Part shown: in pieces, positions 23,318 to 49,622 of the stretch
Position numbering within the stretch: position 1 is the stretch's first letter
How the letters are laid out: each line of letters starts with the position of its first letter
Notes under the pieces: generated by a model
Seen by the model: the letters and a program-made list of their open reading frames with translations, nothing else
The model's database searches: none
Told to the model about the DNA's origin: nothing
Assembly (NCBI RefSeq): GCF_044647545.1
Contig: NZ_CP172818.1
DNA: 64,000 nt
Source: Escherichia coli
GTDB lineage: Bacteria > Pseudomonadota > Gammaproteobacteria > Enterobacterales > Enterobacteriaceae
Direction: 5' to 3' (one strand)
Translations under genes and position numbers: made by a program

Positions 23318-23389
23318 AAAAAGGCGCTATGAAATATAGCGCCCAGTTTCATTAACCCGATGGTTCAGACTATCGGGTTTTCTTTTTTT
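23316..23389. terminator. two hairpins between convergent ybhJ and ybhC (one terminator per strand)
   Basis: A7 + ggcgctat-N5-atagcgcc (T-run on minus strand, ybhC side) and cccgatag-like stem + TTTTCTTTTTTT (ybhJ side). Confidence 0.7.
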
Positions 23390-24671
23390 ACTTCTTCGCC
23401 TCTGCAACCACTTTGCTACCCACGCCGCGGTTATTGTATTCCCACATGCGGTTGTAGTTAGTGTCATTCAGATTGCGCTGTACTTCGTCGTTATCATCAA
23501 CGTTGCCAGTATTACCCGCAAACGGACGATTGGAAATCACCGCATCGGCCCACGGTTTCGCCGTGTTAAAACCTTCGTTGATGGCGCTATCACGGATCAC
23601 TACCTGACCGTTGGTATTGGCATCAACATCCAGCGAGCGGCCCAGTTGTGCCACGCCATCACCGGAAGCATTGAAACGGCTGTTTACGGCGAGGAAACCG
23701 TAGTAAATGTTGGACAGCGTAGCCGGTGCAAACACATACGCTTCTTGCTGGGTACGGGAGTTCACCACGCGGAATTCGGTGTTATCGAACACCACTGCGC
23801 CGCGACCAGAAACGATATCCACATCCCCTTCAATATAGCTGTTGGTCACCAGCGTACGCGGCTGACGGTTGGTTTCCAGACGGTTCTGCACACCGCTGTT
23901 GGTGACAAAGAAGGTGTTCTGACGACCGAGAATGTTGACGTTATTGATCTGCACTTTGTCGCCATCAGTACGCAGTGCCACCGCCGGATGGTTACCCGCA
24001 TCTACGCTATCGCCCAGCGTGTTTTCGATGGTCAGGTTTTGCAGTTGCAGGCCATTGTTTTGTGACCAGAAGACCGCAGAGCAGAGAACACCGATACTGT
24101 CGCTGCGTTTACTCTGGCAGCTATCGTACATATACCACGCCGGTTTACCTGGCATATATTTGCCGCGCGGGTTGACGTCGTGACGCCAGTCGGCAGGGCT
24201 CATGCCACCATCAAGGGAAAGCCCAATCTTCACATCAATCGGTTTTTCACCTGTACCGTACAGAGTAATTCCACCCGGAGCGGCAGGGACATACACCGTT
24301 CCCTGATACTCACCAGGCATCACGGCAATATACTGGCGCTTGTTGGTACGCTTGATAATTGCCGCATCTACCGCCGCCTGAATCGTGGTATGCGTTACAC
24401 CTTGAGTACCCGCCGGGCCGACAACAAAGTCAGGTTGCGCAGGCAGGGTAATCGGGGAAGGATTCCACGCTGCCGCACCTGGTGTCAGGGATGCAAAATA
24501 GTGTTGAGCATCGAAATTCTGCGCTTCTTTTGCCGACAGAATCGGGCGAGAAGAGGTACCAGGCGCGGTTTGATCAGAAGGACGTTGATCGGGCGGTGTT
24601 GAGCTACAGGCGGTCAGCGTCACGCCAAAAGCCAATGCCAGCGCCAGACGGGAAACTGAAAATGTGTTCAC
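23388..24671 (-). CDS. ybhC: outer-membrane lipoprotein, pectinesterase-fold acyl-CoA thioesterase
   Basis: 427-aa ORF with lipoprotein signal and lipobox (LTAC) followed by pectin-methylesterase-like beta-helix sequence. Confidence 0.92.
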   Translation of the reverse strand: MNTFSVSRLALALAFGVTLTACSSTPPDQRPSDQTAPGTSSRPILSAKEAQNFDAQHYFASLTPGAAAWNPSPITLPAQPDFVVGPAGTQGVTHTTIQAAVDAAIIKRTNKRQYIAVMPGEYQGTVYVPAAPGGITLYGTGEKPIDVKIGLSLDGGMSPADWRHDVNPRGKYMPGKPAWYMYDSCQSKRSDSIGVLCSAVFWSQNNGLQLQNLTIENTLGDSVDAGNHPAVALRTDGDKVQINNVNILGRQNTFFVTNSGVQNRLETNRQPRTLVTNSYIEGDVDIVSGRGAVVFDNTEFRVVNSRTQQEAYVFAPATLSNIYYGFLAVNSRFNASGDGVAQLGRSLDVDANTNGQVVIRDSAINEGFNTAKPWADAVISNRPFAGNTGNVDDNDEVQRNLNDTNYNRMWEYNNRGVGSKVVAEAKK

Positions 24672-24822
24672 AGGTTGCTCCGGGCTATGAAATAGAAAAA
24701 TGAATCCGTTGAAGCCTGCTTTTTTATACTAACTTTAGCGAAACGGGAAGGTAAAAAGACAAAAAGTTGTTTTTAATACCTTTAAGTGATACCAGATGGC
24801 ATTGCGCCATCTGGCAGAGTGA

Positions 24823-25299
24823 TTAACTAAACATCGCAGTAATCGAGGCACTCGCCAGAGAGTGAAAATGAACGTTAAACCCGACCATCGCGCCGCTGGC
24901 ACCTTCATCGACATCAATACGTTCTACATCCAGCGCGTGAACGGTAAAAATGTAGCGATGGGTTTCGCCTTTCGGCGGCGCTGCGCCATCGTATCCGGTT
25001 TTACCAAAGTCGGTACGCGTCTGCAAAACGCCGTCTGGCATTGCTACCAGACCAGAGCCAAACCCTTGCGGTAATACGCGGGTATCCGCGGGTAAATTAA
25101 CAACTACCCAGTGCCACCAGCCGGAGCCAGTTGGCGCATCCGGGTCGTAGCAGGTGACAACAAAACTTTTCGTTCCCACAGGAACATCATCCCACGCCAG
25201 ATGCGGTGAAATATTATCGCCATCGTAACCCATGCCGTTAAAGACATGACGATGTGGCAACTTATCGCCATCGCGTAAATCATTACTGATGAGTTTCAT
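24823..25299 (-). CDS. ybhB: PEBP/RKIP-family protein
   Basis: 158-aa ORF immediately downstream of bioA on the same strand; matches YbhB. Confidence 0.92.
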   Translation of the reverse strand: MKLISNDLRDGDKLPHRHVFNGMGYDGDNISPHLAWDDVPVGTKSFVVTCYDPDAPTGSGWWHWVVVNLPADTRVLPQGFGSGLVAMPDGVLQTRTDFGKTGYDGAAPPKGETHRYIFTVHALDVERIDVDEGASGAMVGFNVHFHSLASASITAMFS

Positions 25300-25357
25300 G
25301 AGCCCTCCTTTCTTGTTTGCAGAAAGTGTAGCCAGAAACCCTCACGCTGACTTCCCG

Positions 25358-26647
25358 TTATTGGCAAAAAAATGTTTCATCCTGCACCGCACGATTAACC
25401 GCTGCGGTCAGACGCTGCAACTGTTGCGGGAGAATAATATAGGGCGGCATCAGGTAAATCAGTTTGCCAAAAGGCCGGATCCAGACACCCTGTTCGACAA
25501 AGAATTTTTGCAGCGCTGCCATATTCACCGGACGAGTGGTTTCGACCACGCCGATTGCCCCCAGTACGCGCACATCGGCAACCATTTCGGCGTCACAGGC
25601 GGGGGCAAGTTGCTCGCGTAACTGCGCTTCAATAGCCGCCACCTGATGCTGCCAGTCGCCAGATTCGATAATCGCCAGGCTGGCGTTTGCTGCTGCGCAG
25701 GCCAGCGGATTGCCCATAAAAGTTGGCCCATGCATAAAGCAGCCGGCTTCGCCGTTACTGATGGTTTCCGCAACCTCGCGCGTGGTGAGCGTGGCGGAAA
25801 GGGTCATTGTGCCGCCGGTTAAGGCTTTACCGAGACACAAAATATCCGGCGCGATTTCTGCATGTTCACAGGCAAACAGTTTGCCGGTACGACCAAATCC
25901 GGTGGCGATCTCGTCGGCAATCAGCAAGATACCTTCGCGATCGCACATTTTGCGGATTCGTTTTAACCATTCCGGATGGTACATGCGCATCCCGCCTGCG
26001 CCCTGGACAATCGGTTCAATGATCACCGCCGCGATTTCATGACGATGCGCCGCCATCAGGCGGGCAAAGCCCACCATATCGCGCTCATCCCATTCGCCAT
26101 CCATGCGGCTTTGTGGAGCGGGAGCAAACAAGTTTTCTGGCAGATAGCCTTTCCACAGGCTGTGCATTGAGTTGTCCGGATCGCACACCGACATCGCGCC
26201 AAAGGTATCGCCATGATAACCATTGCGGAAGGTCAGAAAACGCTGGCGCGCTTCGCCTTTGGCCTGCCAGTACTGCAACGCCATTTTCATCGCCACTTCT
26301 ACCGCTACGGAGCCGGAGTCCGCGAGAAAAACGCACTCCAGCGGTTGCGGCGTCATTGCCACCAATTTGCGGCACAGCTCAATGGCGGGCGCATGGGTGA
26401 TACCGCCAAACATCACATGCGACATAGCATCAATTTGCGATTTCATCGCCGCATTAAGCTGCGGGTGATTGTAACCGTGGATCGCCGCCCACCAGGACGA
26501 CATACCGTCAACAAGGCGTCTGCCGTCAGACAAAATTAGCTCGCAACCTTCGGCGCTCGCCACCGGATAAACCGGTAGCGGGGAGGTCATGGATGTGTAT
26601 GGGTGCCAGATATGGCGTTGGTCAAAGGCAAGATCGTCCGTTGTCAT
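25358..26647 (-). CDS. bioA: adenosylmethionine-8-amino-7-oxononanoate aminotransferase
   Basis: Start chosen at [20 protein letters not shown] (429 aa); the longer ORF to 26758 would run through the bio operator. Confidence 0.95.
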
Positions 26648-26655
26648 AATCGACT

Positions 26656-26695
26656 TGTAAACCAAATTGAAAAGATTTAGGTTTACGAGTCTACA
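26656..26695. promoter_or_regulatory. bio operator (BirA binding site) in the bioA/bioBFCD divergent promoter
   Basis: About 40-bp imperfect palindrome ttgtaaaccaaattgaaaagatttaggtttacgagtctac between the divergent bioA and bioB starts. Confidence 0.8.
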
Positions 26696-26733: not shown

Positions 26734-27774
26734 ATGGCTCACCGCCCACGCTGGACATTGTCGCAAGTCACAGAATTATTTGAAAAACCGTTGCTGGATC
26801 TGCTGTTTGAAGCGCAGCAGGTGCATCGTCAGCATTTCGATCCTCGTCAGGTGCAGGTCAGCACTTTGCTGTCAATTAAGACCGGAGCTTGTCCGGAAGA
26901 TTGCAAATACTGCCCGCAAAGCTCGCGCTACAAAACCGGGCTGGAAGCCGAGCGGTTGATGGAAGTTGAACAGGTGCTGGAGTCGGCGCGCAAAGCGAAA
27001 GCGGCAGGATCGACGCGCTTCTGCATGGGCGCGGCGTGGAAGAATCCCCACGAACGCGATATGCCGTACCTGGAACAAATGGTGCAGGGGGTAAAAGCGA
27101 TGGGGCTGGAGGCGTGTATGACGCTGGGCACGTTGAGTGAATCTCAGGCGCAGCGCCTGGCGAATGCCGGGCTGGATTACTACAACCACAACCTCGACAC
27201 CTCGCCGGAGTTTTACGGCAATATCATCACCACGCGTACCTATCAGGAACGCCTCGATACGCTGGAAAAAGTGCGCGACGCCGGGATCAAAGTCTGCTCG
27301 GGCGGCATTGTGGGCTTAGGCGAAACAGTAAAAGATCGCGCCGGATTATTGCTGCAACTGGCAAACCTGCCAACGCCGCCGGAAAGCGTACCAATCAACA
27401 TGCTGGTGAAGGTGAAAGGCACGCCGCTTGCTGATAACGATGATGTCGATGCCTTTGATTTTATTCGCACCATTGCAGTTGCGCGGATCATGATGCCGAC
27501 CTCTTACGTACGCCTTTCTGCCGGACGCGAGCAGATGAACGAACAGACTCAGGCGATGTGCTTTATGGCTGGCGCAAACTCGATTTTCTACGGTTGCAAA
27601 CTGCTGACCACGCCGAATCCGGAAGAAGATAAAGACCTGCAACTGTTCCGCAAACTGGGGCTAAATCCGCAGCAAACTGCCGTGCTGGCGGGCGATAACG
27701 AACAACAGCAGCGTCTGGAGCAGGCGCTGATGACCCCGGACACTGACGAATATTACAACGCGGCAGCACTATGA
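26734..27774 (+). CDS. bioB: biotin synthase (radical SAM)
   Basis: 346-aa ORF with radical-SAM CxxxCxxC motif (CPEDCKYC); divergent from bioA across the bio operator. Confidence 0.97.
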
Positions 27775-28925
27775 GCTGGCAGGAGAAAATCAACGCGGCG
27801 CTCGATGCGCGGCGTGCTGCCGATGCCCTGCGTCGCCGTTATCCAGTGGCGCAAGGAGCCGGACGCTGGCTGGTGGCGGACGATCGCCAGTATCTGAACT
27901 TTTCCAGTAACGATTATTTAGGTTTAAGCCATCATCCGCAAATTATCCGTGCCTGGAAGCAGAGTGCGGAGCAATTTGGCGTCGGTAGCGGCGGCTCCGG
28001 TCACGTCAGCGGTTATAGCGTGGCGCATCAGGCGCTGGAAGAAGAACTGGCCGAGTGGCTGGGCTATTCGCGGGCACTGCTGTTTATCTCTGGTTTTGCC
28101 GCTAATCAGGCGGTCATTGCCGCGATGATGGCAAAAGAGGACCGCATTGTTGCTGACCGGCTTAGCCATGCCTCATTGCTGGAAGCTGCCAGTTTAAGCC
28201 CGTCGCAGCTTCGCCGTTTTGCTCATAACGATGTCACTCATCTGGCGCGACTGCTTGCTTCCCCCTGTCCGGGGCAGCAACTGGTGGTGACAGAAGGCGT
28301 GTTCAGCATGGACGGCGATAGTGCGCCACTGGCGGAAATCCAGCAAGTAACGCAACAGCACAATGGCTGGTTGATGGTCGATGATGCCCACGGCACGGGC
28401 GTTATCGGGGAGCAGGGGCGTGGCAGCTGCTGGCTGCAAAAGGTAAAACCAGAATTGCTGGTGGTGACTTTTGGCAAAGGATTTGGCGTCAGTGGGGCAG
28501 CGGTGCTTTGCTCCAGTACGGTGGCGGATTATCTGCTGCAATTCGCCCGCCATCTTATCTACAGCACCAGTATGCCGCCCGCTCAGGCGCAGGCATTACG
28601 TGCGTCGCTGGCGGTCATTCGCAGTGATGAGGGTGATGCACGGCGCGAAAAACTGGTGTCACTCATTGCGCGTTTTCGTGCCGGAGTGCAGGATTTGCCG
28701 TTTACGCTTGCTGATTCATGGAGCGCCATCCAGCCATTGATCGTCGGTGATAACAGCCGTGCGTTACAACTGGCAGAAAAACTGCGCCAGCAAGGCTGCT
28801 GGGTCACGGCGATTCGCCCGCCAACCGTACCTGCTGGTACTGCGCGACTGCGCTTAACACTAACTGCCGCGCATGAAATGCAGGATATCGACCGTCTGCT
28901 GGAGGTGCTGCATGGCAACGGTTAA
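27771..28925 (+). CDS. bioF: 8-amino-7-oxononanoate synthase
   Basis: 384-aa PLP-dependent acyltransferase ORF; start overlaps bioB stop (ATGA). Confidence 0.96.
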
Positions 28926-29667
28926 TAAACAAGCCATTGCAGCGGCATTTGGTCGGGCAGCCGCGCACTATGAGCAACATGCGGATCTACAGCGCCAGAG
29001 TGCTGACGTCTTACTGGCAATGCTCCCACAGCGTAAATACACCCACGTACTGGATGCGGGTTGTGGACCTGGCTGGATGAGCCGCCACTGGCGTGAACGT
29101 CACGCGCAGGTGACGGCGTTAGATCTCTCGCCGCCAATGCTTGTTCAGGCACGCCAGAAGGATGCCGCAGACCATTATCTGGCGGGAGATATCGAATCCC
29201 TGCCGTTAGCGACTGCAACCTTCGATCTTGCATGGAGCAATCTCGCGGTGCAGTGGTGCGGTAATTTATCCACGGCACTTCGCGAGCTGTATCGCGTGGT
29301 GCGCCCCGGAGGCGTGGTCGCGTTTACCACGCTGGTGCAGGGATCGCTCCCTGAATTACATCAGGCGTGGCAGGCGGTGGACGAGCGCCCGCATGCTAAT
29401 CGCTCTTTACCGCCAGATGAAATCGAACAGTCGCTGAACGGCCTGCATTATCAACATCATATTCAGCCCATCACGCTGTGGTTTGATGATGCGCTCAGTG
29501 CCATGCGTTCGCTGAAAGGCATCGGTGCCACGCATCTTCATGAAGGGCGCGACCCGCGGATATTAACGCGTTCGCAGTTGCAGCGATTGCAACTGGCCTG
29601 GCCACAAAAACAGGGGCGATATCCTCTGACGTATCATCTTTTTTTGGGAGTGATTGCTCGTGAGTAA
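28912..29667 (+). CDS. bioC: malonyl-ACP O-methyltransferase
   Basis: Start chosen at [14 protein letters not shown] (251 aa); SAM-MTase motif LDAGCGPG; overlaps the bioF 3' end. Confidence 0.93.
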
Positions 29668-30337
29668 ACGTTATTTTGTCACCGGAACGGATACCGAAGT
29701 GGGGAAAACCGTCGCCAGTTGTGCACTTTTACAAGCCGCAAAGGCAGCAGGCTACCGGACGGCAGGTTACAAACCGGTGGCCTCTGGCAGCGAAAAGACC
29801 CCGAAAGGCTTACGTAATAGTGACGCGCTGGCGTTACAGCGCAACAGTAGCCTGCAGCTGGATTACGCAACGGTAAATCCTTACACCTTCGCAGAACCCA
29901 CCTCGCCGCACATCATCAGCGCGCAAGAGGGCAGGCCGATAGAAGCATTGGTAATGAGCGCCGGATTACGCGCGCTTGAACAACAGGCTGACTGGGTGTT
30001 AGTGGAAGGCGCTGGCGGCTGGTTTACGCCGCTTTCTGACACTTTCACTTTTGCGGATTGGGTAACACAGGAACAACTGCCGGTGATACTGGTAGTTGGT
30101 GTGAAACTCGGCTGTATTAATCACGCGATGTTGACGGCACAGGCAATACTACACGCCGGACTGACTCTGGCGGGTTGGGTGGCGAACGATGTCACGCCTC
30201 CGGGAAAACGTCACGCTGAATATATGACCACGCTCACCCGCATGATTCCCGCTCCGCTGCTGGGCGAAATTCCCTGGCTTGCAGAAAATCCAGAAAATGC
30301 GGCAACCGGAAAGTACATCAATCTTGCCTTAATGTAG
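29660..30337 (+). CDS. bioD: dethiobiotin synthetase
   Basis: GTG start at 29660 gives (M)[16 protein letters not shown] (P-loop); overlaps bioC stop; 225 aa. Confidence 0.9.
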
Positions 30338-34134: not shown

Positions 34135-34277
34135 CTAGTATCGGCTTAACCACTAAACACTCTAGCCTCTGCACCTGGGTCAACTGATACGGTGCTTTGG
34201 CCGTGACAATGCTCGTAAAGATTGCCACCAGGGCGAAGGAAGAAATGACTTCGCCTCCCGTATCTGGAAAGGTGTAC
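34135..34277 (+). promoter_or_regulatory. moaA leader RNA: molybdenum-cofactor (Moco) riboswitch region
   Basis: Structured leader directly upstream of moaA containing CGCCUCCC and GGAAAGG near the RBS; assigned from knowledge of the E. coli moaA leader; boundaries approximate. Confidence 0.6.
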
Positions 34278-35267
34278 ATGGCTTCACAACTGACTGATGC
34301 ATTTGCGCGTAAGTTTTACTACTTGCGCCTGTCGATTACCGATGTGTGTAACTTTCGTTGCACCTACTGCCTGCCGGATGGCTACAAACCGAGCGGCGTC
34401 ACCAATAAAGGCTTTCTTACCGTCGATGAAATTCGCCGGGTTACGCGCGCCTTCGCCAGTCTTGGCACCGAAAAAGTCCGTCTGACGGGCGGTGAGCCAT
34501 CTTTACGCCGCGACTTTACCGATATCATCGCCGCTGTGCGAGAAAACGACGCTATCCGCCAGATTGCGGTCACCACCAATGGTTACCGTCTGGAACGCGA
34601 TGTGGCGAACTGGCGCGATGCTGGACTTACTGGCATCAACGTCAGCGTTGATAGCCTTGACGCTCGCCAGTTTCATGCCATTACCGGGCAGGATAAATTC
34701 AACCAGGTCATGGCAGGGATCGATGCTGCATTTGAGGCCGGTTTTGAGAAGGTCAAAGTCAATACCGTGCTGATGCGTGATGTTAATCATCATCAGCTCG
34801 ACACCTTTCTGAACTGGATCCAGCATCGCCCTATCCAGCTGCGTTTCATCGAATTGATGGAAACGGGCGAGGGCAGCGAGCTCTTCCGTAAGCATCACAT
34901 CTCTGGTCAGGTTCTGCGGGACGAGCTACTGCGTCGCGGCTGGATCCACCAATTACGTCAACGCAGCGACGGTCCCGCGCAAGTCTTTTGTCATCCGGAT
35001 TACGCCGGAGAGATTGGCCTTATCATGCCGTATGAAAAAGACTTCTGCGCCACTTGCAACCGCCTGCGCGTTTCCTCCATTGGTAAACTCCATCTCTGCC
35101 TGTTTGGTGAAGGCGGCGTTAACCTGCGCGATCTGCTGGAAGACGATACCCAGCAACAGGCGCTGGAAGCGCGTATTTCAGCGGCGCTGCGGGAGAAAAA
35201 ACAGACCCATTTCCTGCATCAAAACAACACCGGTATTACGCAAAACTTATCGTACATTGGTGGCTAA
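34278..35267 (+). CDS. moaA: GTP 3',8-cyclase (radical SAM)
   Basis: Start chosen at [31 protein letters not shown] (radical-SAM cysteines); the upstream in-frame extension is the leader RNA. Confidence 0.95.

Positions 35268-49475: not shown

Positions 49476-49622
<147 letters not shown>

Follow-up and report, generated by a model that had tools for sequence, protein, structure and literature searches.

Within the 64,000-nt stretch of Escherichia coli DNA analyzed here (the window), bioA is followed on the same strand by ybhB and ybhC, and bioB, bioF, bioC, and bioD are transcribed in the opposite direction from a shared control region (Table 1). The bioA product matches the Pfam family Aminotran_3 with an E value of 1.9e-130. 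The control region was located by alignment to K-12, and we take it to be the bioO operator on the basis of established knowledge of the bio operon. The preliminary description of this DNA had placed ybhB behind bioA, on the same strand and after a gap of 58 nt, and the coordinates confirm every particular. The K-12 chromosome has the identical layout, with ybhB (b0773) at 807433-807909 and bioA (b0774) at 807968-809257; subtracting 782,610 from a K-12 coordinate gives the window coordinate. The ybhB gene of the window is the same gene as that of K-12, of the same length and in the same position, with ybhC and bioA on either side, and it carries two coding differences. The gap carries three substitutions relative to K-12, which leave untouched the element GCTACACTT discussed below. 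The 2.7-kb region is found in 5404 of 5426 complete E. coli genomes (at least 80% coverage), where it is annotated in the order bioA, ybhB, ybhC, and several complete E. coli genomes match it at 100% identity. The ybhB ORF was reportedly already present in the bio operon sequence of 1988.

Table 1. Features of the bioA-ybhB locus, in window coordinates
Feature	Coordinates	Strand	Description	Basis
Window			E. coli gal–attλ–bio–uvrB region; chromosome from ybhC to uvrB	
ybhC	23388-24671	minus		ORF list
3′ hairpin	24792..24814	minus	Stable hairpin CCAGATGGC-GCAAT-GCCATCTGG, past the ybhB stop by ~10 nt	Fold, z = −2.5
ybhB	24823-25299	minus	158 aa, cytoplasmic PEBP/YbhB-family protein	ORF list, translation, Pfam, NCBIfam, PDB match
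bioA-ybhB gap	25300-25357	minus	Exactly 58 nt, without intrinsic terminator	Sequence, terminator scan, fold, hairpin survey
ybhB Shine-Dalgarno	25304..25310	minus	AAGGAGG, 4 nt ahead of the ATG	Read from sequence
−10-like element	25324..25332 (TACACT = 25330..25325)	minus	GCTACACTT, σS type, 25 nt ahead of the ybhB ATG	Cross-species conservation
bioA	25358-26647	minus	Adenosylmethionine-8-amino-7-oxononanoate aminotransferase, 429 aa	ORF and translation
Putative bioO operator with face-to-face bioA/bioB promoters	26654..26689			Alignment to K-12
bioB, bioF, bioC, bioD	26734-30337	plus	Followed by uvrB	

The YbhB protein can be placed in its family at several levels. It matches PF01161/PBP with an E value of 1.4e-41 (142 bits, cut-off 24), TIGR00481 with 194 bits (cut-off 58), and the NCBIfam equivalog NF007609, named "kinase inhibitor," with 343 bits (cut-off 226). 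The crystallized YbhB proteins of PDB entries 1FJJ_A and 1VI3_A match it over residues 1-158 with two residue differences, and this match to solved structures gives YbhB the PEBP fold, with a predicted anion-binding pocket. The family is large, comprising 12,366 clusters at 50% identity. Tsoy & Mushegian (2022) have argued for an enzymatic role of the YbhB family, with small molecules that contain sugars or ribonucleosides as substrates. YbhB is most plausibly a stress protein that binds or processes a small molecule. Gene order alone does not advance the question of what role PEBP proteins play in bacteria.

It had also been claimed that no obvious terminator separates bioA from ybhB, and three approaches agree on this point. 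A terminator scan of the gap found no terminator-like site, the predicted RNA fold of its 58 nt shows no significant structure (z = −1.5), and a survey of the orthologous locus from 80 Enterobacteriaceae species revealed a gap hairpin with a T-rich tail in a single species (locus L020), the bioA gene of which is broken. Hairpins are instead a feature of the region downstream of ybhB, where 70 of the 80 loci contain one of −10 kcal/mol or stronger (median −19) no more than 90 nt past the ybhB stop. The hairpin in the window belongs to this position, and the bioA-ybhB transcript has its published 3′ end 7 nt past it, at window 24785 (K-12 807,395). The terminator scan did not call this hairpin because it lacks a T-run, and termination at the hairpin is evidently leaky, because bioA-ybhB-ybhC transcripts exist too. 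We considered the hairpin as a classical intrinsic terminator and rejected that assignment in view of the missing U-run and the recorded read-through into ybhC.

Full-length primary transcripts of K-12 connect ybhB to the bioA promoter. The SMRT-Cappable-seq supplement of Yan 2018 lists an operon b0774-b0773 with its TSS at 809,289 and its TTS at 807,395, together with a longer variant, b0774-b0773-b0772; both bioA-ybhB variants are marked as novel relative to RegulonDB, and ybhC is given a separate start at 807,323. In the same data the bioA TSS corresponds to window 26679, which lies inside the bioO region, and the bioB TSS (809,301) to window 26691. Since these transcripts run from the bioA TSS into ybhB, part of the ybhB mRNA comes from the bioO/BirA-controlled promoter. 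The locus thus resembles the other read-through operon variants of Yan 2018, in which a RegulonDB single-gene unit is extended into the next gene, but ybhB appears to have in addition an internal promoter, predicted below, that is absent from the long-read data.

That internal promoter is suggested by comparison of the gaps across species. The gaps of the 80 loci measure 35-74 nt and have diverged almost beyond recognition, leaving TACACT, mostly in the form GCTACACTT, as the sole conserved island. TACACT occurs in 68 of the 75 distinct gaps from these Enterobacteriaceae species, compared with at most 8 of 75 for any 6-mer in shuffled gaps. The sequences that flank it are diverse (48 different on the left and 47 on the right) and show preferences at individual positions, namely, G at −14 (71%), C at −13 (63%), and T at −6 (79%); the full 9-mer is matched by 29 of the 75 gaps and CTAYRCT by 49. 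Between the motif and the following start codon there are 23-39 nt, and between it and the bioA stop 2-39 nt. Where other genes have entered the gap, the motif stands ahead of them. One such insertion, a DJ-1/PfpI-family gene of 226 aa that separates bioA from ybhB, is found in Buttiauxella, Phytobacter, and Cedecea colo, and here the motif precedes the inserted gene. In Erwinia rhapontici bioA is followed by curA (encoding an NADPH enone reductase), DJ-1/PfpI, and ybhB, in that order, with GCTACGCTT upstream. The Salmonella gap carries GGCTACACTT. Such conservation and spacing are the behavior expected of a −10 promoter element. A consensus promoter scan of the gap made no call, its rule demanding a stronger −35 than the gap provides, and the motif emerged only through the 80-species comparison.

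The −10 consensus for σS was reportedly given as KCTAYRCTTAA by Weber et al. in 2005 and Typas et al. in 2007. Compared with σS (RpoS) promoters by way of this consensus, GCTACACTT fits K-C-T-A-Y-R-C-T-T at 9 of 9 positions and is accompanied by a weak −35. From this fit and the conservation we infer that GCTACACTT is the −10 element of an internal ybhB promoter on which σS acts directly. An element at 25332..25324 predicts a transcription start near 25318 (K-12 807,928) and hence a 19-nt leader containing AAGGAGG. SMRT-Cappable-seq reportedly selects long RNAs, so that a ybhB transcript of ~0.5 kb would escape it. The tables of Yan 2018 list no TSS in the gap (80792x-80793x), and the Cappable-seq supplement of Ettwiller 2016, a possibly incomplete table, lists no position in 80791x-80795x. 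The motif itself has been noticed before: for Enterobacteriaceae, Tsoy & Mushegian (2022) described a conserved, nonpalindromic TACACTT ahead of ybhB and raised a variant −10 as one possible reading of it.

RNA-seq data from E. coli K-12 show that ybhB expression is largely uncoupled from that of the bio genes. In the first 49 samples of the PRECISE compendium, bioA and bioB vary together (r = 0.88), and the correlation of ybhB is 0.44 with bioA and 0.29 with bioB. The correlation of ybhB with ybgS, a stress-induced gene that we take to be RpoS-dependent and hence to serve as a σS marker here, is 0.76, and once ybgS is accounted for the partial correlation of ybhB with bioA is −0.05. When bioA is below 7 log2TPM (n = 30), ybhB varies over a 3.6-fold range and correlates with ybgS (r = 0.93) and not with bioA (r = −0.13). 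When bioA is at or above 8 log2TPM (n = 14), the two genes are expressed at nearly the same level, with ybhB minus bioA equal to 0.08 (range −0.29 to 0.39). Over all 49 samples this difference extends from −0.3 to +2.9 log2 units, a ratio that shifts ~9-fold between conditions. Thus, ybhB is never much under bioA, and under repression of the bio operon it exceeds bioA by a wide margin, as a read-through floor combined with an independent promoter would produce. A nonlinear additive model of read-through and an own promoter, fitted to the 49 samples, gave a = 0.07 and an R2 of 0.57 both with and without the read-through term, and so left the two inputs unseparated. Most of the PRECISE samples with high bioA are also high in stress expression.

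Data from Salmonella supply a genetic link to σS. In the supplement of Lévi-Meyrueis 2014, which compares stationary-phase Salmonella Typhimurium 14028 with its rpoS mutant, ybhB falls from 88 normalized counts in the wild type to 19 in the mutant (0.21x, a ~5-fold drop, padj 5e-6). In the same cells bioA gives 9 and 14 counts, respectively, which is not a significant change, and bioBFCD are near zero; per nucleotide, ybhB exceeds bioA about 26-fold. Since Salmonella ybhB is transcribed with the bio operon shut and falls without rpoS, its expression is σS-dependent, through an effect that may be indirect. Reports on stress responses are in keeping with such regulation. Ampicillin, ofloxacin, and restriction attack all induce a set of nine E. 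coli genes that includes ybhB together with osmC, rpsV, yciEF, yjbJ, and dsrB, and in Sphingomonas a YbhB/YbcL gene is a member of the EcfG general stress regulon. The ybhB gene is like members of the σS regulon in being rpoS-dependent in Salmonella and in tracking ybgS in E. coli, but it differs from them in being missing from the list of RpoS-regulated genes of E. coli O157 EDL933 (Dong & Schellhorn 2009). The small supplement to the σS ChIP-seq study of Peano 2015 likewise has no ybhB entry. For the E. coli gene, the motif and the correlation with ybgS together suggest that ybhB is to be assigned to σS.

The conserved position of ybhB raises the possibility, put forward in the preliminary description, that the protein has a part in biotin or fatty-acid metabolism. 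The arrangement of bioA followed by ybhB on the same strand is present in all 80 Enterobacteriaceae species loci and also, among Erwiniaceae, in Pantoea and Erwinia. Beyond this lineage the picture changes, as three homologues of 42-47% identity adjoin mreB, folate genes, and uvrB, with no bio genes beside them. Consistent with this, the context survey of Tsoy & Mushegian (2022) found that YbhB-family genes rarely occur in conserved operons or neighborhoods. The location of these homologues and the published survey leave the proposed biotin or fatty-acid role unsupported; bioA and ybhB are neighbors through a synteny specific to the Enterobacterales lineage, and this does not mark YbhB as an enzyme of biotin synthesis. 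Two further homologues (P0130 and P0148), intact ybhB genes from genomes in which bio and hut genes are fragmented, were set aside as evidence because a short gene can survive in frameshift-rich assemblies by chance. The literature searched for ybhB together with bioA, BirA, or biotin yielded almost only strain genotypes, Δ(ybhB-bioAB)::λ, and a literature search for biotin auxotrophy or bradytrophy of ybhB mutants found no phenotype data. Only bioABFCD and bioH are known to give biotin auxotrophy, and ybhB is not known as an auxotrophy locus. The inserted DJ-1/PfpI (deglycase/glyoxalase-type) and CurA genes point to carbonyl or electrophile stress and not to cofactor synthesis.

Collectively, these data favor a model, to which we assign a probability of roughly 0.7, in which two promoters in tandem drive ybhB: the BirA/bioO-controlled bioA promoter and an internal promoter in the gap. 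RNA polymerase starting at the bioA promoter would continue past bioA, because the gap has no terminator, and through ybhB as far as the hairpin, sometimes entering ybhC. Such read-through would provide a floor of ybhB mRNA that is higher once the bio operon is derepressed. The gap promoter, with GCTACACTT as its −10, σS features (G-14, C-13, TAYRCT, and T-6), and a poor −35, would drive biotin-independent ybhB expression linked to stress and stationary phase, and would be dominant whenever the bio operon is repressed. The strong Shine-Dalgarno sequence would allow ybhB to be translated independently. Compared with the divergent bio operon itself (bioA/bioBFCD under BirA-bioO), ybhB is alike in lying downstream of bioA, unterminated, and in sharing the transcript from the bioA TSS; it differs in that it does not track bioA and bioB, has its own promoter-like element, is linked to bioA only in Enterobacterales, and is not known to act in making biotin. 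The earlier proposal that ybhB is under bio-operator (BirA) control therefore holds in part: the co-transcript does begin at a bioA promoter overlapped by bioO, but expression of the gene is largely uncoupled from bioA. That proposal had been set against the alternative of biotin-independent ybhB transcription from a promoter in the gap, and of this alternative a conserved −10-like motif and bioA-independent expression were found, with the promoter itself a prediction. In sum, we regard ybhB as most likely a stress gene of σS type, with no terminator separating it from bioA, and not as a biotin-pathway gene.

A simpler account would make ybhB an ordinary downstream gene of the leftward bio transcript, served by the BirA-controlled bioA promoter only and forming part of biotin synthesis. 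The unterminated 58-nt gap, the co-transcript that begins at the bioA TSS, the equal levels of ybhB and bioA under bioA derepression, and the synteny in more than 80 species are all compatible with it. However, a gene with that promoter only would not be expected to stand up to 2.9 log2 units above bioA at a ratio that shifts ~9-fold, nor to lose all correlation with bioA when bioA is low, and in Salmonella rpoS-dependent expression of ybhB persists at near-zero, unchanged levels of bioA. The PRECISE and Salmonella expression data thus largely refute this account, and the conserved promoter-like motif in the gap, the homologues outside Enterobacterales that lie away from bio genes, and the restriction of the known biotin auxotrophy loci to bioABFCD and bioH also count against it; we consider it extremely improbable. 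The expression data could also be approached from the RNA side, with TACACT acting as a processing or stabilizing signal, the excess of ybhB over bioA arising from differential decay, and the effect of rpoS being indirect. The gap without a mapped TSS in the Yan 2018 and Ettwiller 2016 data and the weak −35 would fit such a mechanism, and the stable 3′ hairpin could shield the ybhB segment. Against it stand the ~26-fold per-nucleotide excess in Salmonella, where ybhB alone changes in the rpoS mutant, and the placement of the motif, which keeps to 23-39 nt from the next start codon, even ahead of inserted genes, while its distance from the bioA stop runs from 2 to 39 nt. In addition, the motif and its flanks make up a −10 hexamer with σS-type determinants. 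We therefore regard an RNA-level signal as unlikely.

A third proposal accepts a connection to bioA at the level of chemistry. BioA uses S-adenosylmethionine as its amino donor, and a keto acid results as the by-product. YbhB might provide damage control for this compound, S-adenosyl-4-methylthio-2-oxobutanoate, or for its breakdown products, and the proposal can be extended to the DJ-1/PfpI and CurA genes inserted in Erwinia, Buttiauxella, Phytobacter, and Cedecea. The by-product is a recognized dead-end metabolite with no known consuming enzyme, ybhB lies behind bioA throughout the Enterobacterales genomes examined and is read through from the bioA promoter, and the bioA-curA-DJ-1/PfpI-ybhB order of Erwinia and the bioA-DJ-1/PfpI-ybhB order of Buttiauxella, Phytobacter, and Cedecea are further points in its favor. 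The enzymatic activity on sugar- or ribonucleoside-containing small molecules argued for by Tsoy & Mushegian (2022) would suit it as well. However, ybhB expression is dominated by what appears to be a bioA-independent, stress-linked promoter, and the family is huge (the 12,366 clusters noted above), with the distant members that were sampled located away from bio genes. Flux through biotin synthesis is, by established knowledge, tiny, so that a need for detoxification is doubtful. Both the role of YbhB in damage control and its extension to the inserted genes are accordingly judged highly unlikely. If the proposal were correct, a PEBP-family protein would gain an enzymatic or scavenging function and a metabolic dead end of E. 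coli would be closed.

The elements on which the two-promoter model draws have each been published or deposited before, namely, the gene order, the crystal structures, the co-transcript, the rpoS effect in Salmonella, and the TACACTT site. What is new here is the synthesis only: that ybhB has two inputs and that a stress-type promoter, rather than BirA, sets its level under most conditions. With read-through under biotin limitation as one input and a stress- or stationary-phase promoter as the other, biotin-dependent changes in ybhB mRNA are to be expected, and they imply no function in biotin metabolism. The two-promoter model has little import for biotin biology, and a position behind bioA is insufficient to make ybhB a pathway gene of the BirA regulon. 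It does bear on strain construction, as the many engineering strains that carry Δ(ybhB-bioAB)::λ miss a conserved, stress-induced PEBP protein.

An A-to-G change relative to K-12, located between the start sites of bioA and bioB, is present in the right arm of the inverted repeat of bioO, the operator of the BirA-controlled bioA promoter. The change converts this arm from GGTTTACAAG in K-12 to GGTTTACGAG in the window, with the loss of one palindrome position. Among 5419 complete E. coli genomes, 1920 carry exactly the same 83-nt control-region haplotype, so the variant represents a common natural allele. Analysis of the first 49 samples of PRECISE, an E. coli K-12 RNA-seq compendium, revealed that repression of bioA and bioB is relieved 4- to 8-fold upon iron chelation (fur__wt_dpd), upon fur deletion (fur__delfur_*), in soxR and soxS mutants treated with paraquat (oxidative__delsoxR/S_pq), and in BW25113 Δnac (nac_ntrc__bw_delnac_csn). 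In these samples, ybhC moves opposite to bioA and bioB (r = -0.59 with bioA).

In the bioA-ybhB loci of several other genera, a palindrome of the form TTGTTAATCAGTAGATTAACAA is found immediately 3′ of the −10-like motif, between TACACT and the ybhB ATG, where it overlaps the Shine-Dalgarno region. This element, which E. coli lacks, could act as an operator for a repressor or form a hairpin in the leader. The bioA-ybhB gap is also a site of gene insertion. In genera other than that of the window, the inserted genes are located behind the conserved CTACACT motif: a 226-aa DJ-1/PfpI-family protein is encoded there in Buttiauxella, Phytobacter, and Cedecea colo, and CurA plus a DJ-1/PfpI protein in Erwinia rhapontici.

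On the other side of ybhB, the phage lambda attB core, located ~90 nt past the ybhB stop codon, is vacant in the window. In one relative (L004), ybhB is followed by phage tail-fibre genes and a cargo gene, which by eye was judged to be diguanylate-cyclase-like, of the GGDEF type. In this locus and in two others (L002 and L005), no ybhC lies within 4 kb of ybhB, the arrangement that an occupied att site would produce. In two further genomes (L086 and L087), bioA, bioB, bioF, and the hut genes are in fragments; ybhB is intact in both (157-160 aa, 58-67% identity). This pattern could reflect either the decaying genome of a bacterium restricted to a host or an assembly rich in frameshifts.

Locations of features in the window and in bioA-ybhB loci (L-numbers) of relatives
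Feature	Location	Strand	Details
bioO inverted repeat	window 26654-26689		A-to-G at 26687
attB core GCTTTTTTATACTAA	window 24718-24732	+	ybhC-ybhB intergenic region
Molybdenum-cofactor riboswitch RF01055	window 34146-34290	+	103 bits
Rfam sRNA family ES036/CssrF match	window 49544-49586	-	43.3 bits (gathering score 37.6)
TTGTTAATCAGTAGATTAACAA-type palindrome, Kluyvera	L058, L063, L065, L074, L079
TTGTTAATCAGTAGATTAACAA-type palindrome, Klebsiella and Enterobacter sp.	L052, L056, L059, L066, L072
TTGTTAATCAGTAGATTAACAA-type palindrome, Citrobacter	L023, L031, L035
DJ-1/PfpI-family insert, bioA-ybhB	L061 3290-3970		same position in L067, L070, L076, L078, L080
Insert between bioA and ybhB, Erwinia rhapontici	L084 2265-3988		curA (NADPH enone reductase) and DJ-1/PfpI

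Among the RNA elements elsewhere in the window, the RF01055 riboswitch is an already known element and, from its position, is presumably the one upstream of moaA.
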